Positions 11,557-64,000 of a DNA stretch of 64,000 nt are shown here, in pieces. The position numbers and the translations under genes were made by a program. The notes below the pieces were generated by a model that was given only the letters and a program-made list of their open reading frames with translations, was not told where the DNA came from and did not search any database. The stretch's first letter is position 1; each line of letters opens with the position of its first letter. The DNA comes from Gordius albopunctatus (lineage: Eukaryota), in the NCBI GenBank assembly GCA_964276515.1, contig OZ193910.1, forward strand, positions 372,001-436,000, written 5' to 3'.

Positions 11557-11603
11557 TAACACTACCTACGACGGTCCCAAGTCCGTGTGCAAAAAGTGGA
11601 GGG
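11557..11603 (+). ncRNA. Twister ribozyme core (P1-less) at the RTE 5' end
   Basis: T^AA-CACT(P2)-AC(T2)..ACGG(P4)-TCCCAAGT(L4)-CCGT(P4)..AGTG(P2)-GAGGG; colinear with the canonical rice twister sequence as I recall it. Confidence 0.85.
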
Positions 11604-12826: not shown

Positions 12827-13102
12827 TGTAGTGTAGCCGCATTCAAGGTTGCAATTTGAATACACGCGTTTTTCCTATACTTGAGCGCGGTCACAGATAT
12901 TTGAATATACGCTTAGCCATTTGAATATACCTTAGTTTACACCGTACTTTATCTCTTATTTGATTACTACTTTTATATATGTCCTTCGCTATGTGTATAA
13001 AAAGCCTTATCCACCTAATAAAAGAGTCTCTGTTTCTTGATGTAGTCTCTTGGTTTAGAATCTGAGTTTAGCGTTATCTCCCTTGGCCACCACTTCGTTA
13101 CA
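12827..13102 (+). repeat. 5' LTR
   Basis: Direct repeat of 16974-17249 with 3 mismatches counted by eye. Confidence 0.97.
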
Positions 13103-13168
13103 TTTGGCGACGAGGATAAACACTTCTACACCTAATATACTCTGTTATTGTTCTAGTTATCAATTAAG

Positions 13169-16100: not shown

Positions 16101-16961
16101 TGCCAAGAAGGTAGGCCTTTAACGAAAGAAGTACCAATGTCCATCTGGAATATTCCCAACAAACCATGGGAAAGGATTCACATTGATTTGGCGGGGCCAA
16201 TATCAAATAATTATTGGTTGGTTTGTATTGATGCCCTCACTAAATGGCCGGAAGTTATGGTTATAAAACAAATCAACACGTCTAACATTATTTATAATTT
16301 ACGAGTTTTATTCTGCAGATTTGGGCTTCCTCGTTATATAGTTAGTGACAATGGTCCTCAATTCACATCATATGAATTTACAACTTTCTGCAAAATAAAT
16401 GGAATACGACATTTTCGAGGCGCACCGTACCACCCTAGAACAAACGGTCTAGCAGAAATATATATGCGGACCATAAAGAGCAAATTTTTTGCGGGGAGGA
16501 GATAAGGCCTGAACGATCGTGAAAATTTATTACAAGTTTTATTTAATATGCGAACGACGGTAAATACCACCACGGGTATTAGTCCGGGGGAAGGTATGTT
16601 CAATAGAAGACTTCGAACAACTCTTGATCAATTAAAATGGACACGAAAGGAGAAAATCAGTGATTCCGTTTGGAAACAAAAGTATTACAGGAACCGGGGC
16701 CTGGAATACCGTGATTTTGCTCCAAATCAAAAAGTTTGGGTAAAAAATGACAGATCTCCAGGGTGGAGAGAAGGTCAAGTCCTTACAAAAAACAGTTACT
16801 TGACCTATCTAGTACAACTGGGTGACAAAACTCAAATAAAACACCCCGACCATATGAGAGCAGTCAAACGACCAGATCCAGCAGCGATTTCAGAAGACAA
16901 TATACTTCCTTATAAAAGAGTATCAGTGCCAACTGTCAGATATCCTCAAGGTTCCGCTTAA
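13169..16961 (+). pseudogene. Gypsy gag-pol (CCHC knuckle, protease, RT, RNase H, integrase), disrupted
   Basis: CYRCGRANHLARDC; protease HTGA (catalytic D replaced); LPFGL..FMDD; CDAS..DREA..TDH; GHPG..C..C and SDNGPQF..YHPRTNGLAE. Stops at 13508 and 16503; frameshift in the A-run at ~14160. Confidence 0.92.
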
Positions 16962-16973
16962 TGGGAGGAGAAG

Positions 16974-17249
16974 TGTAGTGTAGCAGCATTCAAGGTTGCA
17001 ATTTGAATACACGCGTTTTTCCTATACTTGAGCGCGGTCACAGATATTTGAATATACGCTTAGCCATTTGAATATACCTTAGTTTACACCGTACTTTATC
17101 TCTTATTTGATTACTACTTTTATATATGTCCTTCGCTATGTGTATAAAAAGCCTTATCCACCTAATAAAACAGTCACTGTTTCTTGATGTAGTCTCTTGG
17201 TTTAGAATCTGAGTTTAGCGTTATCTCCCTTGGCCACCACTTCGTTACA
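16974..17249 (+). repeat. 3' LTR
   Basis: Direct repeat of 12827-13102. Confidence 0.97.
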
Positions 17250-19519
17250 GCATAAATCAAAAAAGTCGGAGGATTATCAAGAGTACAGGGACGCAAAGAG
17301 GGCCGCAAAAAAGGCCGTTGCAAAAGCGAAGAATGCTGCGTACACCGAGATGGCAAACAAACTGGATCCTAAAGGGGGCGATAGGCTTATGTACAAATTG
17401 GCCAAGATAAGGGAGAAGAAAAGTCGAGATGTCGGAGTTCTTAAAATAGTCAAAATCGAGAAGGGTCAAACCTTATTCAAGCCGAAGGAAGTGATGGAAA
17501 GGTGGAAATGATATTTTAAGAAACTTATGAATATTGCAAATGACAAGGATTCCCTTCCCGAAATCGAGCCAAATATAAGTATGGTCGAACTCTTTCAGAA
17601 GGATGAAGTTAGGACACAAATGAACAAGATGCAAAAAGGAAAAGCAAATGGCCCAGATGGAATACCTATGGAAACATTGCTCGGATGTCGTGAAGAAGGA
17701 GTCACCACCATGACGAACCTCCTTAACAAGATATAGGTAGAAGAGCGAATCCCTAATCAATGGAGAGCAAGCACGATTATACCCTTATTCAAAGGAAAAG
17801 GAGACCCTCAGGACTGCGGTAATTACAGAGGTATCAAGCTAACTTGCCACTCCTTGAAGCTTTTGGAAAGGATCTTAGTAACAAGGCTGAAAAACGAGGT
17901 GGAAATATCGGCTAATCAATTCGGATTCGTGGCCGGCAAATCCACAATCGACCCAATCTTCGCCCTAAGACAAATGATGGATAAGTATGGTGAAAAGAGG
18001 AAAGACCTACATATGGTTTTTATCGACTTGGAGAAAGCTTATGACACGGTCCCCCGCGATTTAATATGGTGGTGCCTGAGGAAACAAAATATCCCTGACG
18101 CATATATACGGCTTATGAAAAATATCTATGAATCCTCGAACTCTTGCGTTAGGACGACAGTTGGAGACTCTAAACCTTTTCTGGTTAATATTGGATTACA
18201 TCAAGGCTCTGCTTTAAGTCCCTTTTTATTTAATATAATTATAGACACGATAACGAGGGACTTTCAAAAGCCATCGCCATGGTGTATGCTATATGCCGAT
18301 GATATAGTACTATGCGAGGAAACAAGGGAGAAGGTATTCGAAGAAGCAGAAAAGTGGTCAAAGCGCTTAGCTGGATATGGTTTAAAGGTCAATGATCGAA
18401 AAACGGTATACATGGAAATGAACGGTACAAGCACCCCATCGCTGGATGACCACCTAAAATACCCAAAAGTAGACAGGTTTAATTACCTCGGCTCTATGCT
18501 ACATCAAGAGGGAGGTTGCGCAACTGAAATCAATGCCCGGATTCAAAAAGGATGGCTTAAATGGCAAAGTGTATCCGGTGTAATGTGCGACAAGAAAATG
18601 CCAATATGGTTGAAGAGCAAAGCTTACAAATCCATCGTAAGACCGGTGTTACTCTATGGAAGTGAAACATGGGCATTAAACACCACGGAAGGAAAGTTAT
18701 TACAAGCCACGGAGATGAGAATGATACGGTGGAGCTTGGGGTATACTAAGCTCGACCATATGACGAATGACTTTCTCATGACAAAAATGGGTATTCAACC
18801 TATGGCGGACATGATTAACGAAAATCGGCTTAGGTGGTATGGGCATATACTAAGAAGGGACCCGGATGACGTAAATCGAAAAGTGCTAGACATGAAAATA
18901 CCGGGGAAGAGAGGAAGAAGACGACCCCGTGTCACGTGGAAAAGGCAAGTCGATAAAGTTATGGAAACTAAAGAGATTCGTCAAGACATGGCACTAACCC
19001 GGTCAAGATGGAAGAGACTCATCAAAACAAACCCCACCAATGTGGAACCAAATAACTGATAAAGAAGAAGAAGAAGATTATAATTTATATTTTATATTAT
19101 TTTATTTATTTACGATTTTGTATCTAGTTTGGAAATGTGTTATTTATTATGTCCATTAGTGATTATGGGTCCGAATCAAATTTGATTATAATGATTTCTC
19201 TCATAAATTTAAATACGTGCAATTTAAAGTATAATGCTGAATATAATTGATGATGGTAACAATAGACTTAGTCTATTAAGAAGCTTTAGCCAGGGTTAAT
19301 AAAGTGTCTTAATTTTCTCAATTATGTAACTAAGTCAACCATAAGCGAACGTATTATTAAGTCTATTTATAGTTGACAAAAACAGTGAATTTGATACAAA
19401 TGTTATAATTTGCTAGAACAATCACATTTAATTTTCTATACTTCAAATTTATTTGTAGTCTTTGTTTGCACTTTCTATAGAAAATTTCATCTTTATGAAT
19501 TAATTCATATCTTTATATT

Positions 19520-24219: not shown

Positions 24220-24788
24220 TAGTGATGGGAAAACGCTTAGCACTAGCGCGCTTAGCATCTCCCCGCTGATGGGAATAGCCTATTAAATAAGATATGTCTA
24301 CTAGCACATAGTCACTTTAAAAGCTATAAGCTATAGGATATGGGAGGTTTGAGGCGCTAAAGCTATGGGAGATGGGAGGTTTGAGGCGCTAAAGCTATAG
24401 CCGATTGCACTTAAATGCGCTAGAGAGAATAATAATTTCAATGAAAACAATAGAGTATAATATGAACTTGTGCGTACTCACCCTTGTTATTGTAATTTAA
24501 TATCTAATAAACAATTAAAAAAATTATTCTCAATGTTAGCGCCGTGCTATAGGTCAAGCGCATTTAAGTACAATCGGGTATAGCTTTAGCGCCTCAAACC
24601 TCCCATCTCCTATAGCTCATAGTACCTCAAACCTCCCATCTCCCATAGCTTTAGCGCCTCAAATTTTAAACCACTTATCTCCTTTAGCTTATAACACTTA
24701 AAGTGACTATGTGCTAGTAGACATAGCGGCATGTGGTTGCTATGTGCTATAGCTTTAGCTCCTTAAAAATGCTATTTCCCCATCACTA
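24220..24788. mobile_element. hAT MITE with internal inverted and 31-bp tandem repeats
   Basis: TIR TAGTGATGGG / CCCATCACTA; perfect 8-bp TSD ATTATACT (24212-24219 / 24789-24796). Confidence 0.92.
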
Positions 24789-33256: not shown

Positions 33257-34578
33257 GAACAGATGATCCATTTCGCAAAAATGTTTTCCAATTACTCAAT
33301 ATACCTCCTCCTATTTATATTGTAAGCATTCCCCTGGCTCCGAAAACCTTTTTGTCACCTCAATGCTCTTTGTTTACTATTATCATCACCCAAAACAAAC
33401 ATAGACTACTCAACAATTGTATTTCCTTTACCTTATAAAACAGTCGCGATTGAACCAAATTTTTATAGATATGAAATAGCAATATTTATCCTTCAAATCT
33501 ATTTATTATTATTTACAATTACACATATAATGCGGGCATGTATTGTTCACGTCATTTATTTATATTTATATAAGTGATTGGATTCTTTTCAGAATAACGT
33601 TGCCTATTTATGTATTATTTTAAAATATTTACTTAAAACTATTTTCATTTATGACAATAATGGTTTAAATAAAGTTTAATAAATTTCCAAATTTTATTAC
33701 TGATTTACAACTGTTCTTATAAAAAAAATTAAAACGAACGCTATAGTACTTAAAGGATATATATATTGATTCGAGTGCTCCCAGTTTTTTAAAATTAGAC
33801 AATATTAGAATTCTAATTTTTTTAATCCTATCTCCGTGCCCCTTGGCATAGGAATTAGGCAATGATATATTTAATATATGAAATATTTGGTTTGAGGCTT
33901 AACAAAAAGCAGACAACAGGGGCGGGCCGGCCCTTTGGCCAAGTCGAAAGATTGAGTTTTTAATTATTTCCTTATAAATTGGGACAGTAGTCATTTAGCT
34001 AAACTCATTAAGATAATTATTTCATCATTTAATATATGCTTTGCACCTTTCTAATTTTACCTATAAAAAATATCATTTAATCTGAGATTTCTTTTTGAGA
34101 ATTATCAAATAACTACGCACTTAATCTAGTAAAAATGCTCGTTAAATAGAAAAAGAAAAATATTCATTTGCTCGGATTTTTATTAAATTGTAAAAAACTA
34201 ATATTATGTTAGAAATAAACATAAATAATAAGATTTAAAAATTAATAGGCAAATCTTTGTGAATTAGTAAGCATGTAATTATTGCAAGAAAGGAGTGTAT
34301 ATAACTATAGGTTTTTAATGTCACATTTGCAATAGAGTAATAAAATGTATTTCTAGATAACTATTATATTCATATCATTTTTTATGTACATCAAACATAA
34401 TTTGTAAATTTTTTCTAATATTATAAGATTCAATTAGCTTTATATTCAAATTTTATGACAGTAACATTCATAAAATATTTTTGGATGAGCTTTAGTTTGT
34501 CTAAAGCCTCATGTTAAATATTTACCAAATTTGGGTTTGGCAAAAAAAAATATTCTAAACTTATTCCTTAAACACATA

Positions 34579-34625
34579 TAACACTACCAACGACGGTCCC
34601 AAGTCCGTGTGAAAAAAGTGGAGGG
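34579..34625 (+). ncRNA. Twister ribozyme core (P1-less) at the RTE 5' end
   Basis: T^AACACTACCAACGACGGTCCCAAGTCCGTGTGAAAAAAGTGGAGGG; P2, P4, T1 and T2 pairings are all possible. Confidence 0.85.
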
Positions 34626-37600
34626 TTGGCGTCAGGTCGGAAGCCGGCTGTAAAAAGCAACTCCAAACACCATGGCAGCTTCAAATACGAACTTATACCA
34701 GAATGCTAGGGCGTCCTCCCCAAACGACGCGCATTGCATCATCCACCCGTGCAATGTGAAAAGTATACAAGGGTCACCGCCTCACTCACAACGTAGGCGG
34801 TTAAGGAACCTAGTTGCCGAACGGACAAGAGTGGCTAGCTGGAATGTTGGCACGCTGACGGGGAAGAGCATCGAGGTTGCGCAGATGCTAAAAAGACGAA
34901 GGATACACATAGCGTGTCTACAAGAAACACGGTGGCATGGAACAAAAGCCAGGGAGCTAGGAGATGGTTACAAGCTGTGCTACTCGGGTTCCCCATCACG
35001 GAAGAACGGGGTCGGTATAGTGCTTAGCGATTCCTTTAAGGACAAGGTAGTCGAAGTCAAACGATGCTCGGATAGATTGATGTGCATAAAGCTGGCGGAT
35101 CAAGGCGGCCTTGTCAATGTTATTTGTGCGTATTCGCCCCAGGTTGGATGTTCCGAAAACGAGAAGGACGAATTCTATGAGAAGCTCGAAGAAGAAATAC
35201 GCTACGTGAAGCCTGACGAGAATCTCATCATCGGAGCAGACTTTAATGGGCACGTTGGGAAAGAAAGGGGCGTGTACGAACGAAATCACGGCGGGCATGG
35301 CTATGGAGTGAAAAATAAAGAGGGAGAGAAGTTACTACAGATGGCGCAAGCTTACGATATGGCCATTGTGAATACCTTCTTTCAGAAACGTACCGAACAT
35401 ATAGCGACGTACAGTAGTGGAAATCACCTTACACAGGTCGACTACATATTAGTGAAGCGCATAAATTTGTGGCAAGTTAAAGATTGCAAGGTTATACCGG
35501 GGGAAGAAATCGCCAAACAACATCGGCCAGTTGTCCTCGATATAGCAAGAAAGATTTTTCCCGTAAGGAGAAAAGTCTACACACCAAGGACAAAGTGCGA
35601 AAAGCTTAAGGATGATCATGCAAATGAAATGTTTCACACTCGAGCAACTCCGCTCTTGAAGGTTGCAGGCTTGGAGGGCGACATTAACAAAAGGTGGGGC
35701 ACCGTTGCAAATGTTCTAAAGGAAACGGCCTTACAAATATTGGGACGAACTAAGGGCGGCAGAGCTCACAAGCGTGAACTATGGTGGTGGAATGACTCGG
35801 TCAAAGAGGTTATAGAAGAAAAGAAGACGTTGTACCTACGATGGTACAAAACGAAGAAAGGAGAAGACTACGAGGCATATCGTGAAGCGAAACGCAAAGC
35901 TAAGATAGCGGTCGCGATAGCGAAGAACAACGCTTACACCGAGATGGCAAACAAGCTCGATACCAAGGGCGGCGACATAGTCATGTATAAACTCGCAAAG
36001 ATCAGGGAGAAAAAAAGTCGAGATGTCGGGACACTTAAAGTCATTAAAAGCGAAGAGGGACGAACGTTGTGCAAACCGAAGGAAGTCATCAAAAGATGGA
36101 AAGATTATTTCCAAAATATGATGAACAAAACAAATGATAGAAGACCGCTAGAGAGGGTGGAACCGAACTCGAACTTGGTTTTACCATTTCAGGCTTATGA
36201 AATAGGAGCACAACTAACGAAGATGCGGAAAGGGAAAGCGCTAGGTCCCGATGATCTACCGATCGAAGCATGGCTTGGGTGCAAAGGAGAAGGAATCGAC
36301 ATAATGACAGGCCTATTTAACGCTATGCTGTATGAGAGTCGTATCCCTGACCAATGGAGGGAAAGTACGATCATACCCATATACAAAGGTAAAGGAGACA
36401 CGCAGGAATGTGGCAACTTTAGAGGTATCAAGTTGACCTGCCACTCACTAAAACTACTAGAAAGGGTGCTAGTGAAAAGGCTCAATGACGAAGTTTGTCT
36501 CTCGCCCAATCAGTTTGGATTTGTGGCCGGTAAATCAACGATGGACCCAATCTTTGCGTTGAAGCAGACGATGGAAAAATATGGCGACATAAGAAAGAAA
36601 TTACACATGGTCTTCATCGATTTAGAAAAGGCCTACGATACGGTTCCGAGAGACTTAATATGGTGGTCCCTTAGAGCCAGAAATATACCCGAAGGATATG
36701 TTCGACTTATCAAGGAAATGTATAATGGCGCGGTTGCATCTGTTAGGACTACCGTAGGAGTAACGAAACCCTTCCGAATAATGATCGGACTACATCAAGG
36801 ATCAGCGTTAAGCCCATTCTTGTTTAATCTAATTATGGATACAATAACAAAGGACTTGCACAAGCCAGCCCCTTGGACTATGCTATATGCCGACGATATT
36901 GTCCTATGCGATGAAACAAGAGAAGGGGTTTTTCATCAGGCGAAAAAATGGTCAGAACGTTTCTCGGAATTCGGGTTAAAGGTCAGCGAGAAGAAAACGG
37001 TTTACATGCAAACGATGGGCGGTAGTCCGCAAATGCACAAAATTGAAGGTCCAAGGTACACGGAGGTTGATAAGTTCACATATCTTGGCTCGCTATTACA
37101 TCAAGAGGGAGGATGTACCGCCGAAGTCCATTCTCGGATCAAGAAAGCATGGCTCAAGTGGCGCAGCATCTCCGGTGTCATGTGTGACAAAAAGATACCA
37201 ATTTGGTTGAAAAGCAAGGCGTACAAAACCATCGTGCGTCCGGTCTTGCTTTACGGGAGCGAAACATGGGCTGTAACCAGCGCGGAGGAGAAACTCTTGC
37301 AAGTCACGGAAATGAGAATGGTGCGATGGAGCTTAGGCTACACCAAGCTGGATCGCATGACGAACGAATCCTTGATGGCAAAGATGGGTATACAAGCGAC
37401 GAAGAACCTCTTAAGAGAAAATCGACTGCGGTGGTACGGCCATGTATTACGAAGAGACGAAGACGATGTCACACGCCGAACGCTGGAGATGGACGTGCCT
37501 GGAAGAAGAGGAAGGGGCAGACCACGTGCCACCTGGAAACGACTGGTCGAAAAGGATATGGACGTCAAACAGATGGAAATTGGGATGGCATTCACACGAC

Positions 37601-37664
37601 TCAGATGGAAGAGGCTGCTGAAAACGTACCCCACGTCTGTGGGATTTTCAACACGATAAAGAAG
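34581..37664 (+). mobile_element. Intact full-length RTE LINE
   Basis: Perfect 18-19 bp TSD ATTCCTTAAACACATATA(A) (34563-34580 / 37665-37682); short GAAG tail; uninterrupted ORF. Confidence 0.97.
34672..37659 (+). CDS. RTE ORF: AP endonuclease + reverse transcriptase, 995 aa
   Basis: WNVGTL, CLQETRW, GADFN, DYIL, QHRPV (APE); FIDLEKAYD, GLHQGSALSP, YADD, YLG (RT); RLRWYGH..RGRGRP. Confidence 0.97.
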   Translation: MAASNTNLYQNARASSPNDAHCIIHPCNVKSIQGSPPHSQRRRLRNLVAERTRVASWNVGTLTGKSIEVAQMLKRRRIHIACLQETRWHGTKARELGDGYKLCYSGSPSRKNGVGIVLSDSFKDKVVEVKRCSDRLMCIKLADQGGLVNVICAYSPQVGCSENEKDEFYEKLEEEIRYVKPDENLIIGADFNGHVGKERGVYERNHGGHGYGVKNKEGEKLLQMAQAYDMAIVNTFFQKRTEHIATYSSGNHLTQVDYILVKRINLWQVKDCKVIPGEEIAKQHRPVVLDIARKIFPVRRKVYTPRTKCEKLKDDHANEMFHTRATPLLKVAGLEGDINKRWGTVANVLKETALQILGRTKGGRAHKRELWWWNDSVKEVIEEKKTLYLRWYKTKKGEDYEAYREAKRKAKIAVAIAKNNAYTEMANKLDTKGGDIVMYKLAKIREKKSRDVGTLKVIKSEEGRTLCKPKEVIKRWKDYFQNMMNKTNDRRPLERVEPNSNLVLPFQAYEIGAQLTKMRKGKALGPDDLPIEAWLGCKGEGIDIMTGLFNAMLYESRIPDQWRESTIIPIYKGKGDTQECGNFRGIKLTCHSLKLLERVLVKRLNDEVCLSPNQFGFVAGKSTMDPIFALKQTMEKYGDIRKKLHMVFIDLEKAYDTVPRDLIWWSLRARNIPEGYVRLIKEMYNGAVASVRTTVGVTKPFRIMIGLHQGSALSPFLFNLIMDTITKDLHKPAPWTMLYADDIVLCDETREGVFHQAKKWSERFSEFGLKVSEKKTVYMQTMGGSPQMHKIEGPRYTEVDKFTYLGSLLHQEGGCTAEVHSRIKKAWLKWRSISGVMCDKKIPIWLKSKAYKTIVRPVLLYGSETWAVTSAEEKLLQVTEMRMVRWSLGYTKLDRMTNESLMAKMGIQATKNLLRENRLRWYGHVLRRDEDDVTRRTLEMDVPGRRGRGRPRATWKRLVEKDMDVKQMEIGMAFTRLRWKRLLKTYPTSVGFSTR

Positions 37665-37692
37665 ATTCCTTAAACACATATAAATTAAAATA

Positions 37693-45925: not shown

Positions 45926-46709
45926 TTAATAAAAAGTGTTAATAATCGCTTAATTATCACACATATATTATTAAAAATCAAATTCTTTCCATTTTCAATG
46001 TCTTTGCTCGCCCCTCTTTTAAAAACTTTAACTCGGGAGCTTTCTTCCCTAACATCGAACACGATATGAATCTAAATTTAAAGTATAAAAATTGTAGGAG
46101 ATCTTAATTCGTCCCTAAGTAACGAAAAACACAATTTAGCTTACTCTATGGGATAGACCAATAGAAATGGTAAAATTCTTAAAAAGTCTGCAGTAAAATC
46201 TCTCAAACTTCATAAATCCCCAATTCACCTAAACTCTTACAATCTCTCTTCACCATAATCTGGATTCCCCAAGCATGGTCCGGTTTGCTTAGAAAAATAT
46301 ACACAAAATGAGATCTTTCTATTTCTCACAGTTATAGAGGTATAACTATAATGGATAATATATTTCAAATTTTTATAAAGATCATATATACACCGGTTTA
46401 CCACTATATCAATAATAACTTATAGACCGACCGCGGCTTTTTGCAAGTCCAAAACAACAACTGAACACATTCTAACTAGAGATGGCGATATAGGGTAATT
46501 TCCGGGGAAAATTGGAAAATTCCCAGGGGAAATTTTAAATTTCCCTATAGTTTTCCTGATATCATCTATTATGTTTTTACAATGTGATTCTAATATGCCT
46601 CGAGGCTATTTTTTAAATTAATATTGGCGCTTTAATCATCTAGATCCATTATAATAATATATTCAATTAAGTAATTACATTTACATATCATGTTTCGTTA
46701 ATAATAATT

Positions 46710-48017
46710 CTCTTCTTTAAAAACCAAATTAGACATTTTTAAATCTATGCCATCTCATCATTCTTTTTATATTATAAAAAATTATTACAACATTAGCAAA
46801 ATTTTATTCTGCTTCCGCTCTACGCAAGCTTTTTTATTTAAAGAAGTTTTACAGGACTATGAAAACTTTTTTAAATCCACTCTTGAATCAATTTTAAATA
46901 TTTCCTTTAACACCAATACTTGGCTTCAAGCCACACTTCCCACAAAATCCGGTGGCCTTGGTATTCGCTCCCCATCTGCGATTTCCCTAGCCGCCTTTAT
47001 TTCTTCCTCTCTATCTTTTAAACATCATATCAACGACCTTGTCCCATTCCCACTTAATCCCTCCATAAATCAAGCCCTATCCTTATGGAATGAGAACGTC
47101 AATGTAGGAGCTAATATACCACAATCATACGCTCAAAAAGATTTGGATGCAAGCTTGGTGTCGCGGTCCGTTGCTTACCTTCTCTCGACATGCGACGCCA
47201 AACAGCATTGCAACCTTAGGTCATTGGCTTTCGACCAATCCGGACATGAATGGCTTGAAGCTTACCCTAGTAAGTTTTCGGGTATGTTTTTGGAGAATCC
47301 TACCCTCTCCTACAATAAAGCCCTCCGCTTGGGCTGTAAATACACGTCCTCATACCCCTGCCGGCTTTGTAATTCACTTGTAGATGAGGAAGCACGTCAC
47401 CCTCTGCATTGTAAATTTAACAAAAGCCGGTATGGTAGGCACCAAAAAATAAATACACTACTTCAAGCTGCCCTCAAACGGGCAAAAGTCCCTTCGATCC
47501 TTGAACCTTCAGATCCCTCTCTCGAAGGGCGGATGCGCCCGGACGGTTCGTCCCTTATCCCATGGGACAAAGGCCTTTTCTTAAAATGGGACTACACCTG
47601 TATAGACCTTTTTGCCCCCTCCAACGATACTCACGACCCCCTTGGATCGGCGGAGCATCGGAAATCCTTAAAATATTCAGCTTTATCCCAAAACTCGATT
47701 TTTATTCCTATCGTCTCATCGTGCTCAGGGACATTTGGGAAGAGCGCTTTAATTTTTTTTAAAGAACTCAATAAACGCTCCTCCCCTTGTAAAATATCGA
47801 ATAGTTTTTTCCTACGACAATCAATTGCCATCGCGATCGCTAAATCTAATTTTTATTCTTTGATGGATTCAATGCCCATTCTCAAAGATGAAGAAACGGA
47901 TATTGAGTTTTAATCATTTTTTTTATATAAATTTTTTCGTTCTTGTATCTTTTTATTAATTCCACTCAATATTTAATACTTTTTATTTAATAAAGCATGT
48001 CAATTTAAAAAAAAAAA
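46710..48017 (+). mobile_element. 5'-truncated CRE-like LINE with poly(A) tail and ~92-95 bp TSD
   Basis: ORF 46747-47913 with QATLPTKSGGLGIR, CCHC (CRLC..HPLHC) and RPDG..WDYTC..AEHRKSLKY; flanks 46615-46709 and 48015-48109 are identical except for one base. Confidence 0.93.
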
Positions 48018-48221: not shown

Positions 48222-50887
48222 TAGTGTTGTGATGGGCGCGCTAAATAGCGCGTCCTAGGTAGAGATGTAAAGTTGCTATTATGCTCCAACCTACCATATG
48301 TGCTTGGAGGAATAAGCTCTGTCATCAAGAGGGCTAAAATGCTTAAGAGGTTCCAGTTGTAACAGCAAATACAAACTCAAGCAGAAGGAATGAGGCGGGA
48401 TGAAGGACTTTAAATAAAAGTAGTTTTGTGCGAGCAATCGCTGATAGCAAGCTGCTCATCCATTTCGCTCAACGAATGTCTTAATTAATTATGTGATATA
48501 TCGCAATTAATCTGCTCAGCAAATGTATTGGAATGGTGGAAAATGAATGAGACACGCTTTCCGACACTCACTAAAATGGCTAGAGACTATTTAGGGCAGT
48601 CCATGGCAGGAAATATTTTTACAGCTAGAAGAAATGGTTTGTCCTCAAATACGATTACCCAAATTATGTGTGTAAAGTCTTGGGGAAATGTTAATTTAAA
48701 ATAATATTAGTTGTAATTTATGTGTATTTTTGGTGACATTTAATAAAATAATAATGCTGATTTGGTGTCAATACTTTAATTTGAACTAGAAATAGATATA
48801 TGTAAATAAATTAAAAATATTTTTGCCATGTTTTAAACAATAAATTCCAAAATCTTTTGCCAAAAAAATATTAAATTTTAACCTGGCTTAAAAGACCATA
48901 TTAAAAATGTCAAAAAATTTATTAGCATTTGGGTGAGACAGAAAATTAAAAAATATATAATGCCAAAAATTTTCATGTATAAAAAAATTTTTTAATATCA
49001 TTAAGCTATTTTAGCCATATATAAAGAATATTCTATAAAGCGAAATTTCCCACTTTTTATAAAACTTTGCATTGTGACCTGGACTAAAAATATTATTAAA
49101 TATAAATTTAGAAACATTAAGTCATATTTAGAATGTCAAAAAAAATATTTATACAATAAAATATAATTTCGCCATTTATAAAAAATAAATTTTTAAAAAT
49201 CATTTTAGATATATATAATTATATTCGAAAAAAATTATAGTTCGTACCTTTAATAAAATTTTAACATTGACACCTGTTCTTAAAAACGATAAAATATAAA
49301 GTTAAACCATATTAAAATTGTCAAACAGATTATTACCACCTGGGTGAGACAGAAAATTAAAAAATTTATAATTAAATAATTTTTTTTTAATTTTTGGCAT
49401 GTATAAAAAATAAATTATAAGATCATTAACAAAAAATTTGATCTTAAAAAATTTTTACCCCCCCCCCTTTAGGAAATCCGACTTACGCCTATTCAAATAG
49501 CCACAATAATTGTTGAAAAACAGAATGTACTGTGTTAAAAGTAAGGACGCTTTAATGAGAACATTATGTTATGATGAGCAGTTTAGATAAACTGCTTGCT
49601 CATAGCATTTGCTCATATGAAATAGGTTATTCAATTTATAATGCTGCTCAGGCACACAGCTCTATACATGAGTTACTTTTTGCTACTACCCCTTCGCCTA
49701 TCGAGCATTGTCATCTAGTACATCAACAGCCTCATGAGTAGAATAGGATACACAGTGCGTGTGAGGGGGCAGAGCTCACAGTGAGCAATGCTCATTGGAG
49801 CAAATCACCATCACTAGTCCTAGGGTGTGCTAAGGGGGTATTATAGTCTTAAAAAAAAGAGCCGCACCCACATTGTTAGTCTCCTTTTCTGGTGAAGACA
49901 TTGAGTGCGGGTGTGTTAAATACGGACCATTAGCTAGTCTATTATTTTTTCATAGAGACCCGATGGACCCTTAGATATATGCTAAGGGGGTGTTATTAGC
50001 TAGTTGTTATTGTCATCATCATCAACACGATGTGTGCTGTTGTTGTGCCTGCAGTGAAGTCAAACTTGTTAATCTCTAAGCTATCTTCCTATGTCCTATC
50101 TATAAAGTGTACTAATATTAAAGTAAAGACTTTGCTAAGCTAATACGAAACGATTACCTGACAGGACATTCAACTTTTATTATAACAATTAGGCCAGGGA
50201 CGTACGCAGGGTTGTATAAATTTTTTTGGGGGGGGAGGTATAAGGGGAAGGGAGGGTTACAATATCAAATAAACTTTATCTAAGCTTGGTGTTTTTGTTA
50301 TGCCCCTCCAAAAATATAATGTTATTAAGCCCTTGTAATTATTACACAAATTATAAATTATTTTTATCTTTCGACTAATTTTTATCTGTAACAAGTAAAA
50401 GCACAGCAAACATTCGATTTCAAAAAAAAATTATTTTTATCCAAAAAAACTCCTCCTTCAAAAAATCATTCGTATATGAGTGTCTTAAAGTCTTTGATGT
50501 AACTAAACTATAATATTTTCCCCCATTTAATTTAGTAATTAATCAAAAAAACTTCTCAGTCCCGTCCCCCCTCCCCCTCATTTACGCCACTGATTTATTC
50601 ACGATGTTGCTATTTTAAGTTAAAAAAAGTAAATAGTACAAAGAACCCCTCATGCCTCCTTATTTGTTTCATCAATGTGATGGTTAATGTGATGGCACAT
50701 GTGGCGGTTCTATTTTCTACAATTTAGGAGCATGGGGGGGGGGGGAGGGAATTAGTAAGAAAAAAGGGGGACCTTACAGTAGGCAAGAAGCGCGTCTTAC
50801 GATGCACCTTTATAAGGGTGTGCCCTCTTAGTCTCTTTCTTTCTATTGAGGCGTGGGTGTAAAATGGCGCCCCGCATAACATCACTA
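48222..50887. mobile_element. Non-autonomous hAT element C inserted in hAT A
   Basis: Termini TAGTGTTGTGATG / CATAACATCACTA; perfect TSD CTAAATAC (48214-48221 / 50888-50895). Confidence 0.85.
48260..49816 (+). mobile_element. hAT element D inserted in element C
   Basis: Termini TAGAGATG / CATCACTA; perfect TSD GTCCTAGG (48252-48259 / 49817-49824); remnant VLEWWKMNETRFPTLTKMARDYL at ~48525-48595. Confidence 0.85.
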
Positions 50888-52014
50888 CTAAATACAGGTT
50901 CCAACCATCATACAGGGGAATATATATGTGAAGAAATTAGCAACAAAATACAACAAATTGGCAGAGAAAAACTAATTGCTGTGGTTACTGATAATGCAGC
51001 TAACATCGAAAAAGCATGGGAACTTTTAAAAGCAAATTACAGTGCACTTGATTGTTTTGGGTGTGCAGCGCATGGCTTAAATTTACTCATCAAGGACATT
51101 TGTTCCAAAAATAAAGAGATCCGCCGTTTAATTAATAAAGCTAAAAATATAATAAAATATATAAAACGTAATTCAATTCTTATGGCTATATTGAAAGAGA
51201 AACAATTGTTAAAAGGAAACACACTTTCACTCAAAGTTCCAGGCCTTACTAGATGGGTGGGGTTGTCATAATGCTTGATAGCCTAATATCAAATAAAGCA
51301 GTTCTTCAAAAAATAGCTACTAGTGAAAGCTTTGAAAACAAAGATAAAAGAAAAACCTTGTTAAATAACGAAAATTTCTGGGATTCGCTTCTGTCCATAA
51401 GGCCCATCTTACGCATTATTTATTCAAAAATTCTGCAGGTAGAGGGAGACAGAGAAATAATATCACTAATTTAACTAAAAAAGGGAGCTTTTTTGTTGTC
51501 AGGACCTACACTTGGCCGCCTATATGCTCGATCCACGTTTTTGTGGGAAAGATTTGTGTGACAAGCAAGTGGCCAAAGCTTTAAAATGTATTTCTCGTTT
51601 GTGCGGCAATATGGAACTTCACCTTGGAAAGGTGATGGGGAATTTAGCAGAATTTCGATGAAAATAAGGGATATGGGGAGAGGCAACGATTTGGGCTAGT
51701 GTTGATTACACGACCCCATTAGCATGATGGAAAGGGATGTGCCTAAATCAAGCGATCAGTCCGCTTGCAATCAGATTATTCTCATTGCCACCTTCAAGTG
51801 CCGCTTCGGAAAGATATGGTCGAATTTTGGCAACGTACACACCAAACTAAGGAACAAATTAGCAAATGATAAAATAGGCAAAATTGTGGCCATAAGACAC
51901 AATTTACACCTTATCAATCGAATAAACACACCGGAACCGGATTATAATGTAATATTATCTTCGGATTCCATAGATGAAGATTTAGAAGAAATTAAATCAG
52001 CAGATACTGAATAA
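50888..52014 (+). pseudogene. hAT transposase remnant of element A
   Basis: HHTGEYI..VVTDNAANI..CAAHGLNL..LTRW, then frameshifted AAYMLDPRF and WSNFGNVHTKLRNKL. Confidence 0.9.
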
Positions 52015-52066
52015 TTTTAATCTGTTTATATACATAAGTAACATAAACTTTTTAGATTCACTCACT

Positions 52067-54660
52067 TTTTTTTCCTATAGCTGTTTGTCACATTTAGTGG
52101 TCAGCTCCTTCAAGTAGGTTCTCCATGTATTCCTGCACTTACACCAGCTTCGCTTTAGCTCGTACCTTCTCAAGTCCATATCAATTTTATGCTTCTATGT
52201 CAGTTTAGGCCTCCCTCTCTTTCGCTTACCTTCGACTTGCACTTTCTTGATACGATTTGCCAAGTGACTTTCCTCCCGTCTCTCCAAATGGCCATACCAT
52301 CTCAATCTTCTTACCACCAACTTTCTCTGCATCGGAACTACATTTAGTTTATCCCTTATGTCTTGATTCCTTATATGGTCCTTTTTGCTTATTCTCAAGA
52401 TCCATCTCAACATTCGCATCTCCATTGTAGCAAGCTTTGCTCCTCTTCTGCCTTAATTGTCCAGGTTTCCACTCCATACAATACCGACTCAAAGCATACA
52501 TATTCTGTTTTATCTCGGTTGACCCTAAGTCTTTTGCTTTCAATTCGTTCCATCCATACTTTTACCTGCTCTGCTAATTCCACGTTTGAGCCTGCGCACA
52601 GGACGATATCATCCGCAAAGAGCATTGCCCAACGTTTCAGGTTCTTCGTTATCGAATCCATTATTGTTATTCAGAGCAATGGACTTAGGGCCGATCCTTG
52701 ATGCACACCGACATTTAGACTGAATCCCTTTGATGTACCACTGGATTTCCGTACTTTGTTTTTTGAGTTTCTATACATATCCTTTATTAATATTATATAA
52801 GCCTCGGGTACACCATTGGAACTCAAGCTATCCCATATCAACTGCCTTGGCACTTTATCGAAAGCTTTCTCAAGATCGATGAAACACATATGAAGATCCT
52901 TTTGTTTTTCCTTATATACTTCCATAAGTCTCCTAAGACCATGTATTGCATCTGAAGTCGACTTTCCAGGCATGAACCCAAATTGTCGTTCATCTATTGA
53001 TATTATTTTTCGGAGTCTAGCTTTTATGACCTTTTCCCACACCTTCATTACGTGACTCGTTAACTTTATCCCTCGATAGTTGTTCCATTCTTGTAAATCT
53101 CCCTTCATTTTATAGATAGGTATAACATAGCTTTCCCTCCACTCATCCGGCATTGTTAAACAGCTTTGCAAGTAGATGTACACCTAAGGGCCCTAGCATT
53201 TTAAAAGCTTCCATAGGTATATTATCAGGTCCCACCGCTCTGACCATGGTCATCTTTTTAAGCATCTGGTAAACCTCTTCTTCTGTCACTTCTAACTCTG
53301 GGTCATATTCATAGTTCTTGCTTTCGCAGTGGTCCGAAAACCTATTTTCATTGTTTAATAATTCTTTATAATATTCTTCCCAACGATCTATGATTTGATG
53401 GTCCAGAGTTTGACTGATGCTTTCCTTGCTCTTTATAGATTTCACGTTCACCACACATCCTTTGAGTTCCTTGCTCTGTTCTTTGCGATTTTGTAGATCA
53501 TTATTTACGCTTCTTTATTTGTTAATTTGGCATTCAAAATTTCGTAGATCTAGGTTTTAGCCTTGGCTACACAACGTTTTACTTCATTTTTAGCTTTCAC
53601 ATATGCCAATCGTGTTTCTTCATTTCGCCTTTAAAACCCATCACAACAAGTCTATGCTGGGCTGCAATAGCCTCACCTGGTATCACCTTACAATCTCGTA
53701 CATTCCTTAATTTTTTTCTTGATATTAGGAGGAAGTCAATCTGCGAAGATCAATTTCCACTTTTGTACGTTATTAGGTGATTTGCATTCTTTTTGAAGAA
53801 AGTATTTGTGATGGCCAAATCAAAGGCAACGGCTATTTTCAATATTTCGTCGCCTTCATAGTTTCTCACTCCGTAGCCATTTCCACTATGGTACCGTTCG
53901 AATCCTTCTCTTGTTTTGCCTGCCTGACTATTCATATCTGCTCCAATTATAACTATCTTGGCTCTGGGTATTATTCGCAGCATTTCGTCTAATTCTTCCG
54001 AAATTCCTCCTTTTCTTCATCTGTGCATCATGTTTGCGGAGCATATCCGGAAACTACATTAATCATTTGACCTTCTATGCATAGTTTCAGCATCATGAGT
54101 CGCCCACTTTTTCTTTGTACCTCAATGACTTTATCTTGCAGATGTGAGGCTAGCATGATTGCCAGCCATTTTTATTCGTTTCAAGGCCATTGAAGTAAAG
54201 TTTATAGCCTTCACCTATCATCCTTGCTTCTGCGCCTTTCCATCTTGTTTCCTGTATACACGCTATATCAAAACGTCGTTTGATGAGGGTGTCAGCAACT
54301 TCTCGGCATTTGGCAGTCATCGTTCCAACATTTAGCGAGCCCACTCTCAATCTCGTCCTTAGCAAACTAGTTTCTTTAACTACATCCGTTTGCGGAAGAT
54401 GTAGTGACCCTTGTTGATATTTCACATGATACGGGCGCCTACCATGCGCGTCGTTTACGGAGGACGCCCTAGCGCTTTCATTATTAAGAACTTTCATAGC
54501 ACTTGGATCAGGGGTGACGCTCGGCTATCCAGGCCTGACAGCCGTGTTGACGATGTGAGATATTTTTAAACTTTGAAATAAATGCCGGAGGAGGTGGAAT
54601 CGAACCAGCACCCTTGAGCTTCAAAGTCTAAAGTTATACCCACTACACCACCACGCCCCA
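52067..54660 (-). mobile_element. RTE LINE (degenerate, internally deleted) with tRNA-derived 5' head and oligo(A) tail
   Basis: 17-bp TSD TTTTAGATTCACTCACT (52050-52066 / 54661-54677); APE and RT fragments (LNVGTM, CIQETRW, FIDLEKAFD, GVHQGSALSP, FADD, RLRWYGH). Confidence 0.93.
54584..54660 (-). promoter_or_regulatory. tRNA-derived (Gln-like) Pol III promoter head of the RTE
   Basis: A box TGGTGTAGTGG, CTTTGAA anticodon-like loop, B box GGTTCGATTCC; acceptor and anticodon stems pair poorly. Confidence 0.85.
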
Positions 54661-54999
54661 TTTTAGATTCACTCACTAATATAATCTAATCGTTTGTTAT
54701 AAATTTTTTAATAAATCTTTTTTAAATCGATGTTAAATGTGTTTTTTTAAGTGTTTGTGTCGTTTTTTTGAGTTGCTGATTCACCCAACATAGTTCTATT
54801 TCAAAATTTTTCCTTATTTTCCCATAATTTCCCTTATTTTCCCATAAATTCCCTTATTTTCCTAATATTTTCCCTTGGAAATTTCCCAAAGACTTGCATT
54901 TGGGAAAATATGACATCTCTAACTCTAACCCTTAAGAACTTAATTGACATTTTTTATAAAGCAAACCAGTCTACTCCTGACATTTTTTACATTCATAAA

Positions 55000-57900
55000 T
55001 AGAGACCTGCACGGCCTAAAAGGCCGCCCCGCGAGCCGGGCTTTAGGTTTAAAAAATATAAACGGGCCGGGCCTGGACGGGCCATTCAATTCCCTCACGG
55101 GCTTGTGCCGGGCCTAGATTAAACTGAGGCCCGCTAAAAGCCCGTTGCAAAATAGTATTAACATCATGCGGATTTTTTCTAAATAATATTTTTAAAATTA
55201 CATTTGTTTCAGATCAAGGGGCCAATATCGTAAGTGCTCTACAAAATTATAGACGACTGGACTGTAAGGCTCACCAGATAAATAATATCATTAAAGGGGC
55301 TTTTGATGAATTATTTTTGGAAGAAAATGCTCCAGATGTCTTGAACATGATAAATGACACTAAAACTCTAGTACGGTACTTTAAGCAAAGTGGCTTAAAT
55401 ATAAATCTAAGCCATTGTTTATATCAAGATGTAGCTGTTAGGTGGAATTCTAAAATGAATCTTTTGGAAAGTGTTAATAATATGTTGGATGAAGTTGAAG
55501 AGATTTTAACAAAAAGGAATGAAACATTTATGTTGTTTAATATAAACAAACCTTTGCTAAAATCCACTATTGAGTTATTGAGGCCTTTTAAAGAAGCAAG
55601 CATAAAATTAGAGGCGGACTCAAAATCCACTATGCTTTATGTATTTTTATGGAAATTGAAATTGAAATTAATTTTTTTTTTTAATATTAAAAAGTTTATT
55701 TGTTAAAAATCCGTCGACAGTAATGTAATATAAATACATAAAATATAAAAGACAAAATGCGTCAAATAAAATAATACACTATTCTAATATATCATCATCG
55801 AGGGGATCTTCCAAAATTGGCCAAGAATCCGCGAACGATTTAAAATTGTACTTGGCTATAAGAATACCAAGTCGTTGTTTAAGTAAAAAGGATACCGAAT
55901 GTTTAGACGGGGGAGAACGTCTTCCTACCTCTTTAAAAAAGGCTAAGGCCTGTTTGCCAAAGGTGCCTCAATACGAAGCGACCAATGGAATAAAAATATT
56001 TGAGGATAATAGGGCTTTGTATTTATTAGCTTTCCGCCCCTCTGCGACAGCTAAGGAATCATTGTTGTAGTTAGAGGGGGCAAATAGGTCAATACACGTG
56101 AAGTCCCATTTAAGGTGAAGACCATTGCTCCATGGGACTAAAGAAGATCCATCAGGACGCATACGTCCCTCCAAGGAGGGGTCCGATGGCTCCAAGATGG
56201 ATGGGATATTTGCTATCTTCAATGCACTTTGAATTAAGGTATTGGCCTTATTGTGCCTAACATATTTAAATTTGTTTGCCAGGCAGTGTAAGGGATGCCT
56301 GGCTTGTTCGTCTACGAGTATGCTGCAATTTCGCCAAATAAATGGCTTCGAAAATTTTACCCCTAGCCTGAGAGCTATGGAGTACGAAAGTTCCGAGTCC
56401 TCCAGCATCATCCCGGTGAGAGACCTTGGGTAGACCTCTAGCCATTCCTGACCTGAGCCATCAAACAAAAACGACCTTAAATTAGAACACTGACTTGCAT
56501 CGCTACTCGAAATTAGATAATCAACGGAGCGCAACACAATTCCGGCATCCCAATCTTTTTGTCGTGAGGTTTGTGGCAAAGGTGTTCCGGGATTGGTATT
56601 GTTTTCCCAAATAGCTAAAGCAATGGGTAAAAGCGGGTCCTTCTTTAACAGGATACAACTTAAAAATGGTATCTTGTACCGATTTGTAAGATGAAATAAA
56701 CGAGACTAGAGATATTGCGGCAGTTGAGCGAATCCCTAAACCACCCGATTTCGTTGGTAGGGAAGCTTGTAACCAGCTATGAGTATTGAACTTTATATTT
56801 AAAATAGATTGTAAAATAGATTTAATATTCTGTTCGAAGAGGTTTAAAATTTCCGAGTATAAAAAAGCACTTGAAGAGCGAAAACAGTGTTGAATTTTTG
56901 AAATATTAAAATAGTTTTTCATTATGTAAAAAGCGTGGTGTGAAGGCAAACACTTTAAGAGATCTAATTTTGAGTTTAAAATAGAGAGATTTTTCTCCAA
57001 ATAAGTTGCGAGTCCAACTCTACCACCTATAGGCGATCCAAGATGGCACATAGCGTCTTTCTCGATTGCTAAAAAAGGGGTAATGTGTGGATATAATGAG
57101 TAATCAGGGGGTTGAAAGATCTCACATTTGGTCTCGTTTAGTTTTAGTTTTAAAATTGGTTCGAAATCCTTTATAATTTTGATGGCTTTAAAAACTTCGC
57201 GAGGATGACCACAAAGGGTGGCATCGTCCAAGTACCAAATATTAAGTGTTAGGTCGCATTCGTGCGATATTTTTTCCACTAAACATTGGATGCCTGAGCA
57301 AGACAATGGCGGACCCAATGGGTCACCTTGTTGGATACCTTCAGATGAATTTATTTTAAAATCCCCAAATCTTAAAAAGGATGTTGAGCCATAACTTAAT
57401 AAGATGTAGTTATGGAACTCCGGGAATTTCTCGAGAAAATTTTCGATAAGGACATCTCTACGAATTCTATTAAAAGCGTTGGCAAAGTCTAGTTTGACCA
57501 TGCAATGATCCGATGGTATGCCTTCGAGGGCTAGCCTAGCGGCATGACTAGCAGCTTCGCAGCCACCCTTTATTCCAAAACCTAATTGATGTGGACTTAG
57601 GTTAGTGGAAAGGATCGGTTTGATTTTATTACATATTATTTTAGAAATAATCCTCCTAAAAACTCCCCCAATAGCGATAGGTCTTAGTGAATTGTCTGGC
57701 TTCTTAATCGCTATCAATTTGGCGCCAAACAAAATAGGTATTATTTCATGAGGCACGTCCCCATTGACAATGAGATTGCATAACGATGTTATGGCCTTTA
57801 GGAGGCATGTTGAGTTTAGGTTATTAATTTTAAGTAAATCTTGGAGATATACAGGGCGGATTCCGTCTAGGCCGGCTGCAGAATCTAGGGGAAATGAGTT

Positions 57901-60417
57901 AATGGCTTCAGCGACCTCGGGGGAATCTAAGGATATGTTGGATTTAGAGTATGGATATTTATCTAAGGATGACGAAGGAGGATGCTTTAGTATAAGCTGG
58001 TTGTAAGTTTCCTGTGTGCTTGGGGCGATTGTATCGTTGCCATAAAACACCCTCAGAGCTCCCTTTGGATTAAAATGATTAATTTTGCTGGATACAAGCT
58101 TAGCAGTATGTTTCAAAGATGATGCAAAAGCAGGTTTTGTCTGGGAAGGGCATAAGAGTGTACAGGTGTCAAAAGTAGGAATGGAGTCTTTTATTTGTTT
58201 AGATAGGTGGTTTAAGTCTTCGGGCGGCCTGATAAAGAGAATGTGGTATGAGAATTTAGGGATTTTGTCCCAATTAGCAAGGTTCTTCGGATCATTAGTT
58301 ATGGACGTTATCAGATTTATAATAAATTGTTGGACGGCCAGTCTTGCCCCTCTAGGAATTCTAGATAACGTCTTAGGAAAGGAGAGAGTAAGGAAGGAAT
58401 TACTCCATGAAAAATCTGGAGGTGTAATATTTGGTGGCAAGCTGTAATCATTAAAATTAAGGGCATGACTGTCTTCAACTTCTGCTTGATTATCCTCTTC
58501 ATTTGCTATTAAAGGGGATGTTTGTTCTCCAATATCACTTATAATAGTTATAGGGGGAATTGCACTTACTGGTGGTGCTTTTTGGCCAGAATATTTACAT
58601 CTTGCTGACGTTGGGCCATGTAAAAAAAGAGGAAATTTTTATTTATTCCAATGATTCTCTTACAAGAGGGGCAAAGTACTTTAAGGTTAACCATGAGAAT
58701 ATTTTAAAGCATATTATTCTGTAAACTTTAAAGCTAAATTACTGAATAAATAAATTCCAGTTGGACAATGGCTACATTGTGCAGAATATTTTAAGTATGC
58801 ATCATTTAGTTTATGTTATGATAATCATTTCATCAAAAAAATATTTATACTTGCAATTGTTATATAGGCATGGATAATAGAATATTTATTAATCTTTTAA
58901 AGCTGGTTATATATGTTCAAGATTAATCAGGCTGCTTAAACTATGATATCTCTTAAATTGGAATTAGTGGATGGATATAAAAGAATAGATATTGGGATAT
59001 AGATGATTGTTATATGAAGTTGTGCAATGAATTGTCTTTGATGTATGCTTGATTGTAAAGATAGGTTAATTTTATTTCCCGTCGTAATTGAAAATTTAGT
59101 TTTTCCTTTCAAATCAGCTGATTGTTCTTTTCCATCATAAAAATAAGTAATTCTGCCATTATCAGCATTAAAATCTGAGTAATTTTATAAAAAATATAAT
59201 TTGCACTTATAATCATTAATTACATATATAGGTTTTTCGCTCAGTGATAATTCGCATTTTCGGAAGACACTGAACATTACTTTTTAGTTTTTGTGATTTC
59301 AATATCAAGTGCCTCTTTCGGGATAGTTTTATTAAATATCCAAATACAAGAGCAAGTGTCTTTTGAGAAAAATAAGTGCGTTTATATAATCGCGCATTAA
59401 TTGAATAAACAATTAAATTTAGTGTTGAGTCCTCGAGGTGTTTGTGATTGGTCAATTAACGTCGCGAGGTAATGGACGCAACGCTACACCTCCAAATCTA
59501 AAAAGTAAAAATAGGGTTTGTTTCAAAAAGAAGGGTATGGAATAATATCAAAAATTAAAATGATTGACAAGTAATGTATATTCAAATTTGATGGAAAATG
59601 ATGGATTTTCGGACAATCAAATTAGAAATATTAAAAATAAAATTAAAGAATTGATTAATAAAAAATAGAATCCATTCCTTGCATAGAATGGCTACGGCGC
59701 TTCACCCCAAATTTAAACACATGAAAATGGCTACTACTCAAGAGAAAAGGGAGACTTATGAAGAAATAAAAAGTCTTATAGATCGCGATGATTTTACTCA
59801 ATCAGTTAGTTCTTCCGAAAATACAGAAAATGACAATAGTATGTCTCAAGGTAAGATTTTAAATTTTAAGACAAAATTTTAGTAATATTTTAGCTAAAAA
59901 ATCTAAATGCGTATTTTCGGAATTGGAGGATAATGAAAGCATACCTTCATCAACAAATGAATTTAATCAATATCTTGAGGAATATGTAGATCCTGAATGT
60001 TTTGATCTTATAAAATGGTGGAAAGCCAAAGAAGCGAAGTAAATGTTATTAATATCAATTCAACCTTAAATTAGGTATCCAAAACTATCTCATTTAGCAT
60101 ATAAAGTTTTATGTATTCCTGCCACAAGTGCCACTAGTGAAAGAAAATTTTCAACTGCAGGTCGATTTATTGAAGAAAGAAGAACTCGCTTGAGACCCGA
60201 GATAATTGATGATTTATTATTTTTACATGATTATTATTAATATTTGTAATATATAGATATATTGATTTATTTTAATAAAAATTAGCAAACTAAAAGATTT
60301 TGTATACAGGCCCGGGGCTATCACCTTTAATTTTTACGGGCCCGGACCGGGCCCGGGCTTTGCAATTAATTAGCGGGCCGGGCCGAATGACCTAAACAGG
60401 CCCGTTGCAGGTCTCTA
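55000..60417 (+). mobile_element. hAT element B (hobo/Hermes-like transposase, N-terminus missing), interrupted by a CRE LINE
   Basis: TIR TAGAGACCTGCA / TGCAGGTCTCTA; perfect TSD TTCATAAA (54992-54999 / 60418-60425); DQGANI..CKAH..VRWNS, HRMATALHP, WWK..YPKL..IPATSATSERKFS. Confidence 0.93.
55672..59500 (-). mobile_element. Near full-length CRE-like LINE (ZnF-RT-CCHC-RLE), frameshifted
   Basis: ATG at 58694 starts CPSC..HGP..RCKYSG; RT LDFANAFN..GIQQGDPLGP..WYLDD; RLE RPDG..WDFTC; poly(A) at 55672-55682. The 5' boundary is uncertain. Confidence 0.9.
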
Positions 60418-63435: not shown

Positions 63436-64000
63436 TTTGATGAGGAAACGATTAGCATTAGCACCTCCCCTCTGATGGGAATAGCCTATTAAATATGCTA
63501 TGTCTACTAGCACATAGTTACTTAAAGCGCTATAAGCTATAGGAGATGGGAGGTTTGAGCCGCTAAAGCTATGGGAGATGGGAGGTTTGAGGTGCTAAAG
63601 CTATGGGAGATGGGAGGTTTGAGGTGCTATGAGCTATAGGAGATGGGAGGTTTGAGGGCTAAAGTATAGCCGATAGCACTTAAAAGCGCTAGAGCTATAG
63701 CACGGCGCCAACATTGATAATAATAATTTCAATGAAAACAATAGAGTATAATATGAACTTGTGCGTACTCACCCATGTTATTGTATTTTAATATCTAATA
63801 ATCAATTAAAAATTATTCTCAATGTTAGCGCCGTGCTATAGCTCTAGCGCATTTAAGTGCTATCGGCTATAGCTTAAGCGCCTCAAACCTCCCATCTCCT
63901 ATAGCTTATAGCACTTAAAGTGACTATGCGCTAGTAGACATAGCCGCATATGGGTGCTATGTGCTATAGCTTTAGCTCCTTAAAAACCCTATTTCCCCAT
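63436..64000. mobile_element. Second copy of the 24220-24788 hAT MITE, running off the window
   Basis: Shares CTGATGGGAATAGCCTATTAAAT, the 31-bp GCTAT(A/G)GGAGATGGGAGGTTTGAGG repeats and the central segment. Confidence 0.92.

Follow-up and report, generated by a model that had tools for sequence, protein, structure and literature searches.

A decayed RTE-like LINE in Gordius albopunctatus carries a tRNA-like head where related elements carry a twister ribozyme

Results

A single 2.6-kb insertion with a tRNA-derived head

The window analysed here is a stretch of 64,000 nt from the genome of Gordius albopunctatus (contig OZ193910.1, positions 372,001 to 436,000). On its minus strand, from 54677 to 52050, lies one insertion of 2.6 kb with an exact 17-bp target-site duplication (TSD) at both ends. 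In element order, its parts are:

54661–54677, minus strand: 5' copy of the 17-bp TSD, an exact repeat of 52050–52066
54583–54659, minus strand: tRNA-derived head, with an A box at 54640–54650 and a B box at 54596–54606
54546–54582, minus strand: T/A-rich spacer, its T run interrupted (TATTT at 54576–54580)
54522–54545, minus strand: conserved RTE 5' UTR motif, placed behind the twister ribozyme in relatives
54503–54506, minus strand: breakpoint at which a short form leaves the UTR for an RTE 3' tail (from contig loose ends)
53633–54497, minus strand: broken APE endonuclease region, with the AUG at 54497–54495, homologous to residues 3–291 of the intact relative P0003
52497–53627, minus strand: broken linker and reverse transcriptase (RT) region (RVT_1, E 5.2e-33), with a deletion of ~100 aa ahead of it
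52075–52487, minus strand: C-terminal coding region behind an ~83-aa deletion, its last 50 nt like the tail of the short form
52067–52073, minus strand: oligo(A) tail (A7), read from the sequence
52050–52066, minus strand: 3' copy of the TSD, an exact repeat of 54661–54677

Because one TSD surrounds all of these parts, the head, spacer, UTR and ORF were inserted together as a single unit. The original prediction had described just this arrangement, a tRNA-like head, a linker, an APE-RT region and an oligo(A) tail within one 17-bp TSD, and the exact TSD, both boxes and the A7 tail are all in place. It is highly improbable that the site was hit twice, once by a SINE or tRNA pseudogene and once by an RTE without a head: the abundance of both element types is the sole point in favour of such a history, against which stand the lone 17-bp TSD, with no inner tail and no second TSD, and the recurrence of the head-linker junction in further contigs, which contradicts it.

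The insertion is flanked on the plus strand by transposase-like fragments (50816–52014 and 55128–55706, with DUF659 at 50819–51268), which we take to be hAT-like. Two further RTEs lie on the same strand. One (34575–37680, here RTE_B) is headed by a twister ribozyme, has an open ORF of 995 aa, resembles Perere-3 and looks intact; the other (11553–19075, RTE_A), also a twister RTE, is split by an LTR-type retroelement, and a 276-bp repeat (12827–13102 and 16974–17249, 98.9% identical) is probably the LTR pair of the latter. Several non-LTR elements of another kind, with long RT-like ORFs, occupy 46708–47913, 55968–58638 and 7824–8369 and are presumably CRE-like. Long palindromic repeats at 24361–24615 and 63654–63881 are probably miniature inverted-repeat elements; their Rfam microRNA matches fall far below threshold.

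The head is of SINE type

Rfam matches the head to tRNA at 54586–54657 with 23 bits (E 0.017), under the gathering score of 29, and its alignment makes the head Gln-type, with the loop CUUUGAA. ARAGORN called 0 tRNA genes for the head, which by this result and the Rfam score (23 vs 29 bits) falls outside the functional tRNA genes. Its cloverleaf has decayed: about a third of the pairs are non-standard, the acceptor stem pairs poorly, and folding is no better than that of shuffles (z 0.35). Among contigs at least 80% alike, no variant in the A or B box reaches a share of 10%, and several do between the boxes. Judged by its sequence, the head is of SINE type, with boxes kept and structure decayed. 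A tRNA head with A and B boxes places it with SINE2-type elements; bipartite RTE SINEs are short and non-coding, whereas this copy measures 2.6 kb and holds coding remnants.

The coding region is a dead RTE-type ORF

The ORF begins with an AUG 86 nt behind the head and ends with a stop codon at 52075–52077. It is collinear with residues 3–1000 of P0003, a protein with Exo_endo_phos and RVT_1 domains in Pfam, and is 63% identical to it over residues 559–780, the RT region. Relative to P0003 it is dead, with 6 stops in the aligned segments and several frameshifts, and it lacks about residues 292–392 (~100 aa) and 781–863 (~83 aa). Single APE fragments gave no Pfam match. The element has a single ORF, APE then RT, with no ORF1, as well as a 17-bp TSD and a short 3' UTR with a simple A7 tail, all of which are features of RTEs. 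On this architecture and the UTR motif, it is probably an RTE-clade LINE.

Among 40 RTE-like sequences in an RT tree, the nearest to the element is P0003; the tree holds no named references from other clades, and its outgroup branch is too long for rooting. Neither a protein of the same family nor an intact ORF turned up in protein searches, and a search with the N-terminal part returned nothing at a cut-off that was too strict. The intact-ORF copy that the original prediction proposed to look for was therefore not found, the closest relative being 63% identical. A 5'-truncated RTE elsewhere in the window (8434–8751, minus strand) has 92% protein identity to P0003.

A post-ribozyme UTR motif without a known ribozyme

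The UTR motif (54545–54522) aligns with the motif behind the ribozyme position in RTE_A, RTE_B and 13 metagenome RTE loci. AGG, A and CC are invariant in 16/16 sequences of this alignment (AGG..A.CC), which bears out the earlier likening of the linker to the post-ribozyme UTR of the twister RTEs. In this copy the motif folds into a hairpin; the consensus fold of the 16 sequences is weak (3 pairs, −0.96 kcal/mol). A 15-nt part of the linker also matches 5S rRNA in 14/15 letters, which we attribute to chance, because neither box A nor box C of 5S surrounds the match and the motif aligns with RTE UTRs.

Twister-P1 matches at 11553–11607 and 34575–34629 form the 5' ends of RTE_A and RTE_B, and both ribozymes abut the TSDs of their elements. 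Between 54400 and 54800 Rfam reported no known ribozyme family at E up to 10, while the scan of the window detected both twister RTEs. Given the presence of the UTR motif and this negative result, the sequence comparison indicates that the element keeps the post-ribozyme UTR and that its tRNA head stands at the ribozyme position of its relatives.

A swap of 5' modules between related RTEs, as first proposed, agrees with this in part: the ribozyme of the relatives is missing here, but the lineages are distant. In the RT tree, of which the root is unusable, the twister RTEs of the window form a clade of their own (100/100), apart from this element and P0003, so a swap would lie between distant lineages and not between sister families.

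A twister ribozyme was present in 6 of 20 other RTE loci surveyed. The B box occurred in 0 of 23 usable upstream regions of other RTE loci, several of them short or 5'-truncated, two further loci having been dropped because their start lies outside the contig. An Rfam scan of the other RTE loci returned no tRNA heads, a weak negative, since the Rfam scan at the scale of the window missed the present head too. The exact linker pattern had 0 matches in metagenome contigs and 0 in viral contigs. Two loci, L069 (130–300) and L044 (1–60), hold RTE 5' ends with the UTR motif and a common upstream sequence, possibly another 5' module, in which Rfam, applied to L069 and not to L044, found no ribozyme family.

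The head-linker junction is multicopy

Seven sequencing runs contain the stretch, all as Logan contigs, and no RNA run is listed among them. Copies were examined in five of them (X1, X2, X3, X5 and X7, from three studies), using contigs at least 80% alike; X3, X5 and X7 come from two studies other than that of X1 and X2, one of which may be the very sample behind the window. Contigs cover the head in all five runs, and in the mappings of X1, X2, X5 and X7 the cover ends at 54665. Seventeen X1 contigs leave the element at 54659 into unrelated AT-rich flanks (agreement 0.48), giving a sharp 5' end, and the head is thus the 5' terminus of many independent insertions. Head and linker are joined in X1 record 8, X5 record 24 and X7 record 32, the second of which has a foreign flank of 1384 nt. 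The junction of head, spacer and UTR therefore exists in many copies. The original prediction had named its restriction to this locus as the sign of a single chimera, and the independent flanks of the 17 X1 contigs contradict such a restriction.

The spacer diverges among other copies at 54558 and at 54565–54566. Loose ends at 54558–54566 (58 and 63 X1 contigs) lead into a variant spacer, a T run and a tRNA-like 3' end, and those listed on the upstream side of the linker likewise show a T run and then the 3' end of a tRNA-like sequence (CGGCA). Since the loose ends at 54558–54566 finish in tRNA-like sequence again, at least one other head type, less than 80% alike to this head, appears to exist. 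None of these listed upstream ends, which number 24 per mapping, with 1243 and 407 more beyond them, reads as a twister. The best explanation is that there is more than one head and spacer variant, the window's variant being a minority.

A short form joins the linker to an RTE 3' tail

The largest class of loose ends begins at 54503, 6 nt ahead of the AUG, and comprises 119, 87, 73 and 5 contigs of X1, X2, X5 and X7, respectively, and 77 of X3. It marks a short form in which the linker is joined to an RTE 3' tail and which is present in all five runs. Compared by eye, the consensus of this form shares 22 of 30 letters with the 3' end of the element, among them a core of 9 nt that is identical throughout (52105–52097). 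X5 record 24 follows the head to 54506 and then runs for 30 letters off the element, as expected of a headed short form. Summed contig depth peaks over the linker, where it is ~2x that of the ORF in X1 and in X2, and at least 4x in X5.

The short form is probably a tRNA-headed bipartite RTE SINE, with an estimated length of about 210 nt; being non-coding, it is a further member of an already known type. The SINE-like derivative that the original prediction implied thus exists, as the loose ends at 54503 in five runs attest.

Coding copies and the head

Whether coding copies carry the head bears on a different account of the locus, in which the head belongs to the SINE only, and this copy and a few others are dead-end chimeras formed by RT template switching from LINE RNA to SINE RNA, or by DNA recombination, in the shared 80-nt UTR. 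We think this a serious rival, though less likely than not. The short form is abundant, and spacer and UTR are common to SINE and LINE. Among 4776 contig pieces, 32 were listed, and 24 of these include 31 nt or more of the ORF; 0 of the 24 reach the A or B box, and seven have 141–987 nt of upstream sequence unlike this head, stopping at 54558–54595. All of this agrees with chimera formation, as does the literature: template switching is how RTE derivatives gain heads in the published model (PMC5786205), heads have been exchanged in bird SINEs by template switching (PMC5729268), and chimeras of tRNA and LINE-1 are known as single events (PMC13174262).

Other observations point away from chimeras. 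The spacer is common on coding contigs, and four of the 24 listed (X2 records 11 and 16, X5 record 23 and X7 record 26, from three studies) extend upstream of the ORF across the whole spacer and cover the final 9–13 nt of the head, a length below the 31-letter rule for bridging. No ribozyme-bearing alternative 5' end occurs among the 24 loose ends listed per mapping. The published tRNA-L1 chimeras (PMC13174262) are mostly antisense half tRNAs, whereas the head here is full and in sense.

Summed depths are not copy numbers, and in X1 that of the head is about 0.35 M against 1.0–1.25 M at the ORF start, about a third. The head has a quarter of the summed depth of the ORF start in X2, again not a ratio of copies. 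For X5, with sums that likewise do not equal copy number, the values are about 0.01 M and 0.05–0.10 M, a fifth to a tenth. As head depth lies below that of the ORF start in all three runs, the short form alone could explain the cover of the head. The contigs are most simply read as a lineage whose long and short copies bear several tRNA-type heads, a pattern that template switching between SINE and LINE RNA in the shared UTR fits as well. A self-propagating tRNA-headed LINE is a likely candidate.

T runs and Pol III terminators

The sense strand has no T run longer than 4, as the original prediction stated, but it has five T4 runs, as well as four TVTTT motifs, one of them directly behind the head. 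The argument built on T5+ depletion did not hold: zero T5+ runs are within chance (P 0.26–0.29 against shuffles, 0.14 against 32 other RTE ORFs), and T5+ is absent in 1 of those 32. The T4+ count has P 0.09, and twister RTE_B is equally low. For T4+ or TVTTT taken together, observed/expected is 0.92 (P 0.09) and 1 of 32 other RTE ORFs is lower, the same ratio being ordinary in the twister RTEs (1.36 and 1.50). None of the three tests (T5+, T4+ and T4+ with TVTTT) reached P 0.05 (P 0.09–0.29), and the low level of terminator-like motifs in this ORF is suggestive only. Twister RTEs had been said to have T5–T6 runs; T5 runs are present, two in RTE_B and two in RTE_A, plus one in the LTR inside RTE_A, and no T6 occurs in the segments counted.

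The first T4 run (54270–54273) is private to this copy and missing from most copies, the other four runs lying outside the mapped range. Some spacer variants have a T7–T9 run behind the head. An RTE can also be T4-free without an upstream B box, as L062 (560–3349) illustrates: its ORF has 0 T4 in 2790 nt (3.3 expected), with no B box in 520 nt upstream. In mammalian cells, TTTT ended 65% and TATTT 42% of B2 transcripts according to PMC8466645; if these mammalian efficiencies apply, full-length Pol III read-through of this copy is predicted at 0.1–0.5%.

Such values bear on whether the head drives the coding RNA at all. It might be a family trait without that role, the coding RNA being made by Pol II from host promoters, as in ribozyme RTEs, and Pol III serving the short form only; the head would then either ride along or mark the 5' end by way of tRNA-processing nucleases. 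We consider this account improbable. The T4 runs, the TVTTT motifs and, in some variants, the T7–T9 run would stop Pol III, and known Pol III mobile elements span 100–1263 bp (PMC10886601). Coding contigs that end at 54558–54595 could, speculatively, reflect cutting behind the tRNA-like part. Counting against a Pol II origin are the invariant A and B boxes beside variable stems and the sharp 5' end at 54659; recognition by RNase P or Z is further disfavoured by the poorly paired acceptor stem.

Discussion

The reading that we put forward, and hold at about even confidence, is that the insertion is a defunct copy, with internal deletions, of an abundant RTE lineage without the usual 5' ribozyme, whose coding copies likely bear tRNA-derived heads as a family trait, like the short bipartite derivative, with putative use of Pol III. 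Under this reading, Pol III would start internally from the A and B boxes and so fix the 5' end of the RNA, as ribozyme cleavage of host read-through RNA does for twister RTEs. Some polymerases might read past the interrupted T run that follows the head, the uncapped coding RNA could be translated as ribozyme-cut RTE RNA is, and the encoded APE-RT would insert the RNAs of both lengths by target-primed reverse transcription. Promotion by Pol III from the head is likely for the short form and possible for the long form. RTE RNAs cut by ribozymes are translated although they lack a cap (PMC8501958 and PMC6765202), so translation of an uncapped Pol III transcript would not call for a new route. 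Kojima points out that a ribozyme would cut a head off (PMC5786205), which fits the absence of a ribozyme in this element.

A more far-reaching version holds that an autonomous RTE swapped its ribozyme for a tRNA-derived Pol III promoter, that its 3-kb coding RNA is made by Pol III and has been purged of terminators, and that the SINE arose by plain internal deletion, head first and deletion second. We regard it as tentative at best.

Several known systems share part of this arrangement. Bipartite RTE SINEs (Bov-tA, SINE2_Gav, CoeSINE4 and ManaSINE1; PMC5786205 and PMC4844689) consist of a tRNA head, a ribozyme-free piece of RTE 5' UTR and an RTE 3' end. The short form fits this description, whereas in the copy of the window the UTR and the tail are still separated by 2.4 kb of coding sequence. 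In the published order of events the head was added after internal deletion (PMC5786205), while a headed LINE would permit the reverse order. Closest in description are RTE-1_DAn and relatives (Repbase), RTE LINEs with tRNA-like sequence matching SINE2, which receive one sentence in PMC5786205 that gives neither position, orientation nor function; the name RTE-1_DAn is absent from the supplement searched, and the likeness is known by description only.

Perere-3 of Schistosoma mansoni (PMC8501958) and RTE_A and RTE_B have the same single APE-RT ORF, short UTR motif and TSD abutting the 5' module. They differ from the present element, which has no known ribozyme and carries a tRNA-type head upstream, and RTE_A and RTE_B belong to a separate clade. 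Chimeras of small RNAs and LINE-1 (PMC13174262) likewise unite a small RNA and a LINE within one TSD; those with tRNA are described there as rare, mostly half-length and antisense, and here the tRNA-type part is full-length, in sense and multicopy. In Nicotiana, RTE lineages (SolRTE) exchange their 5' ends, in an account (10.1101/2022.11.04.512097) of which the text mentions no tRNA, Pol III or ribozyme. Our literature search, with Repbase Reports and most subscription journals outside its scope, found no tRNA-headed coding RTE beyond the sentence on RTE-1_DAn.

If the chimera account were true, the copy would be an ordinary by-product of a known SINE type. RTE LINEs are the source of most SINEs with LINE-derived bodies, and a lineage whose coding copies and SINE have head, spacer and UTR in common would make the order of events testable in one genome. 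Should Pol III make the coding RNA, that RNA would exceed the known Pol III mobile elements several-fold in length while encoding protein. In that case, a ribozyme and a Pol III promoter would be interchangeable means of giving an uncapped LINE RNA a fixed 5' end.
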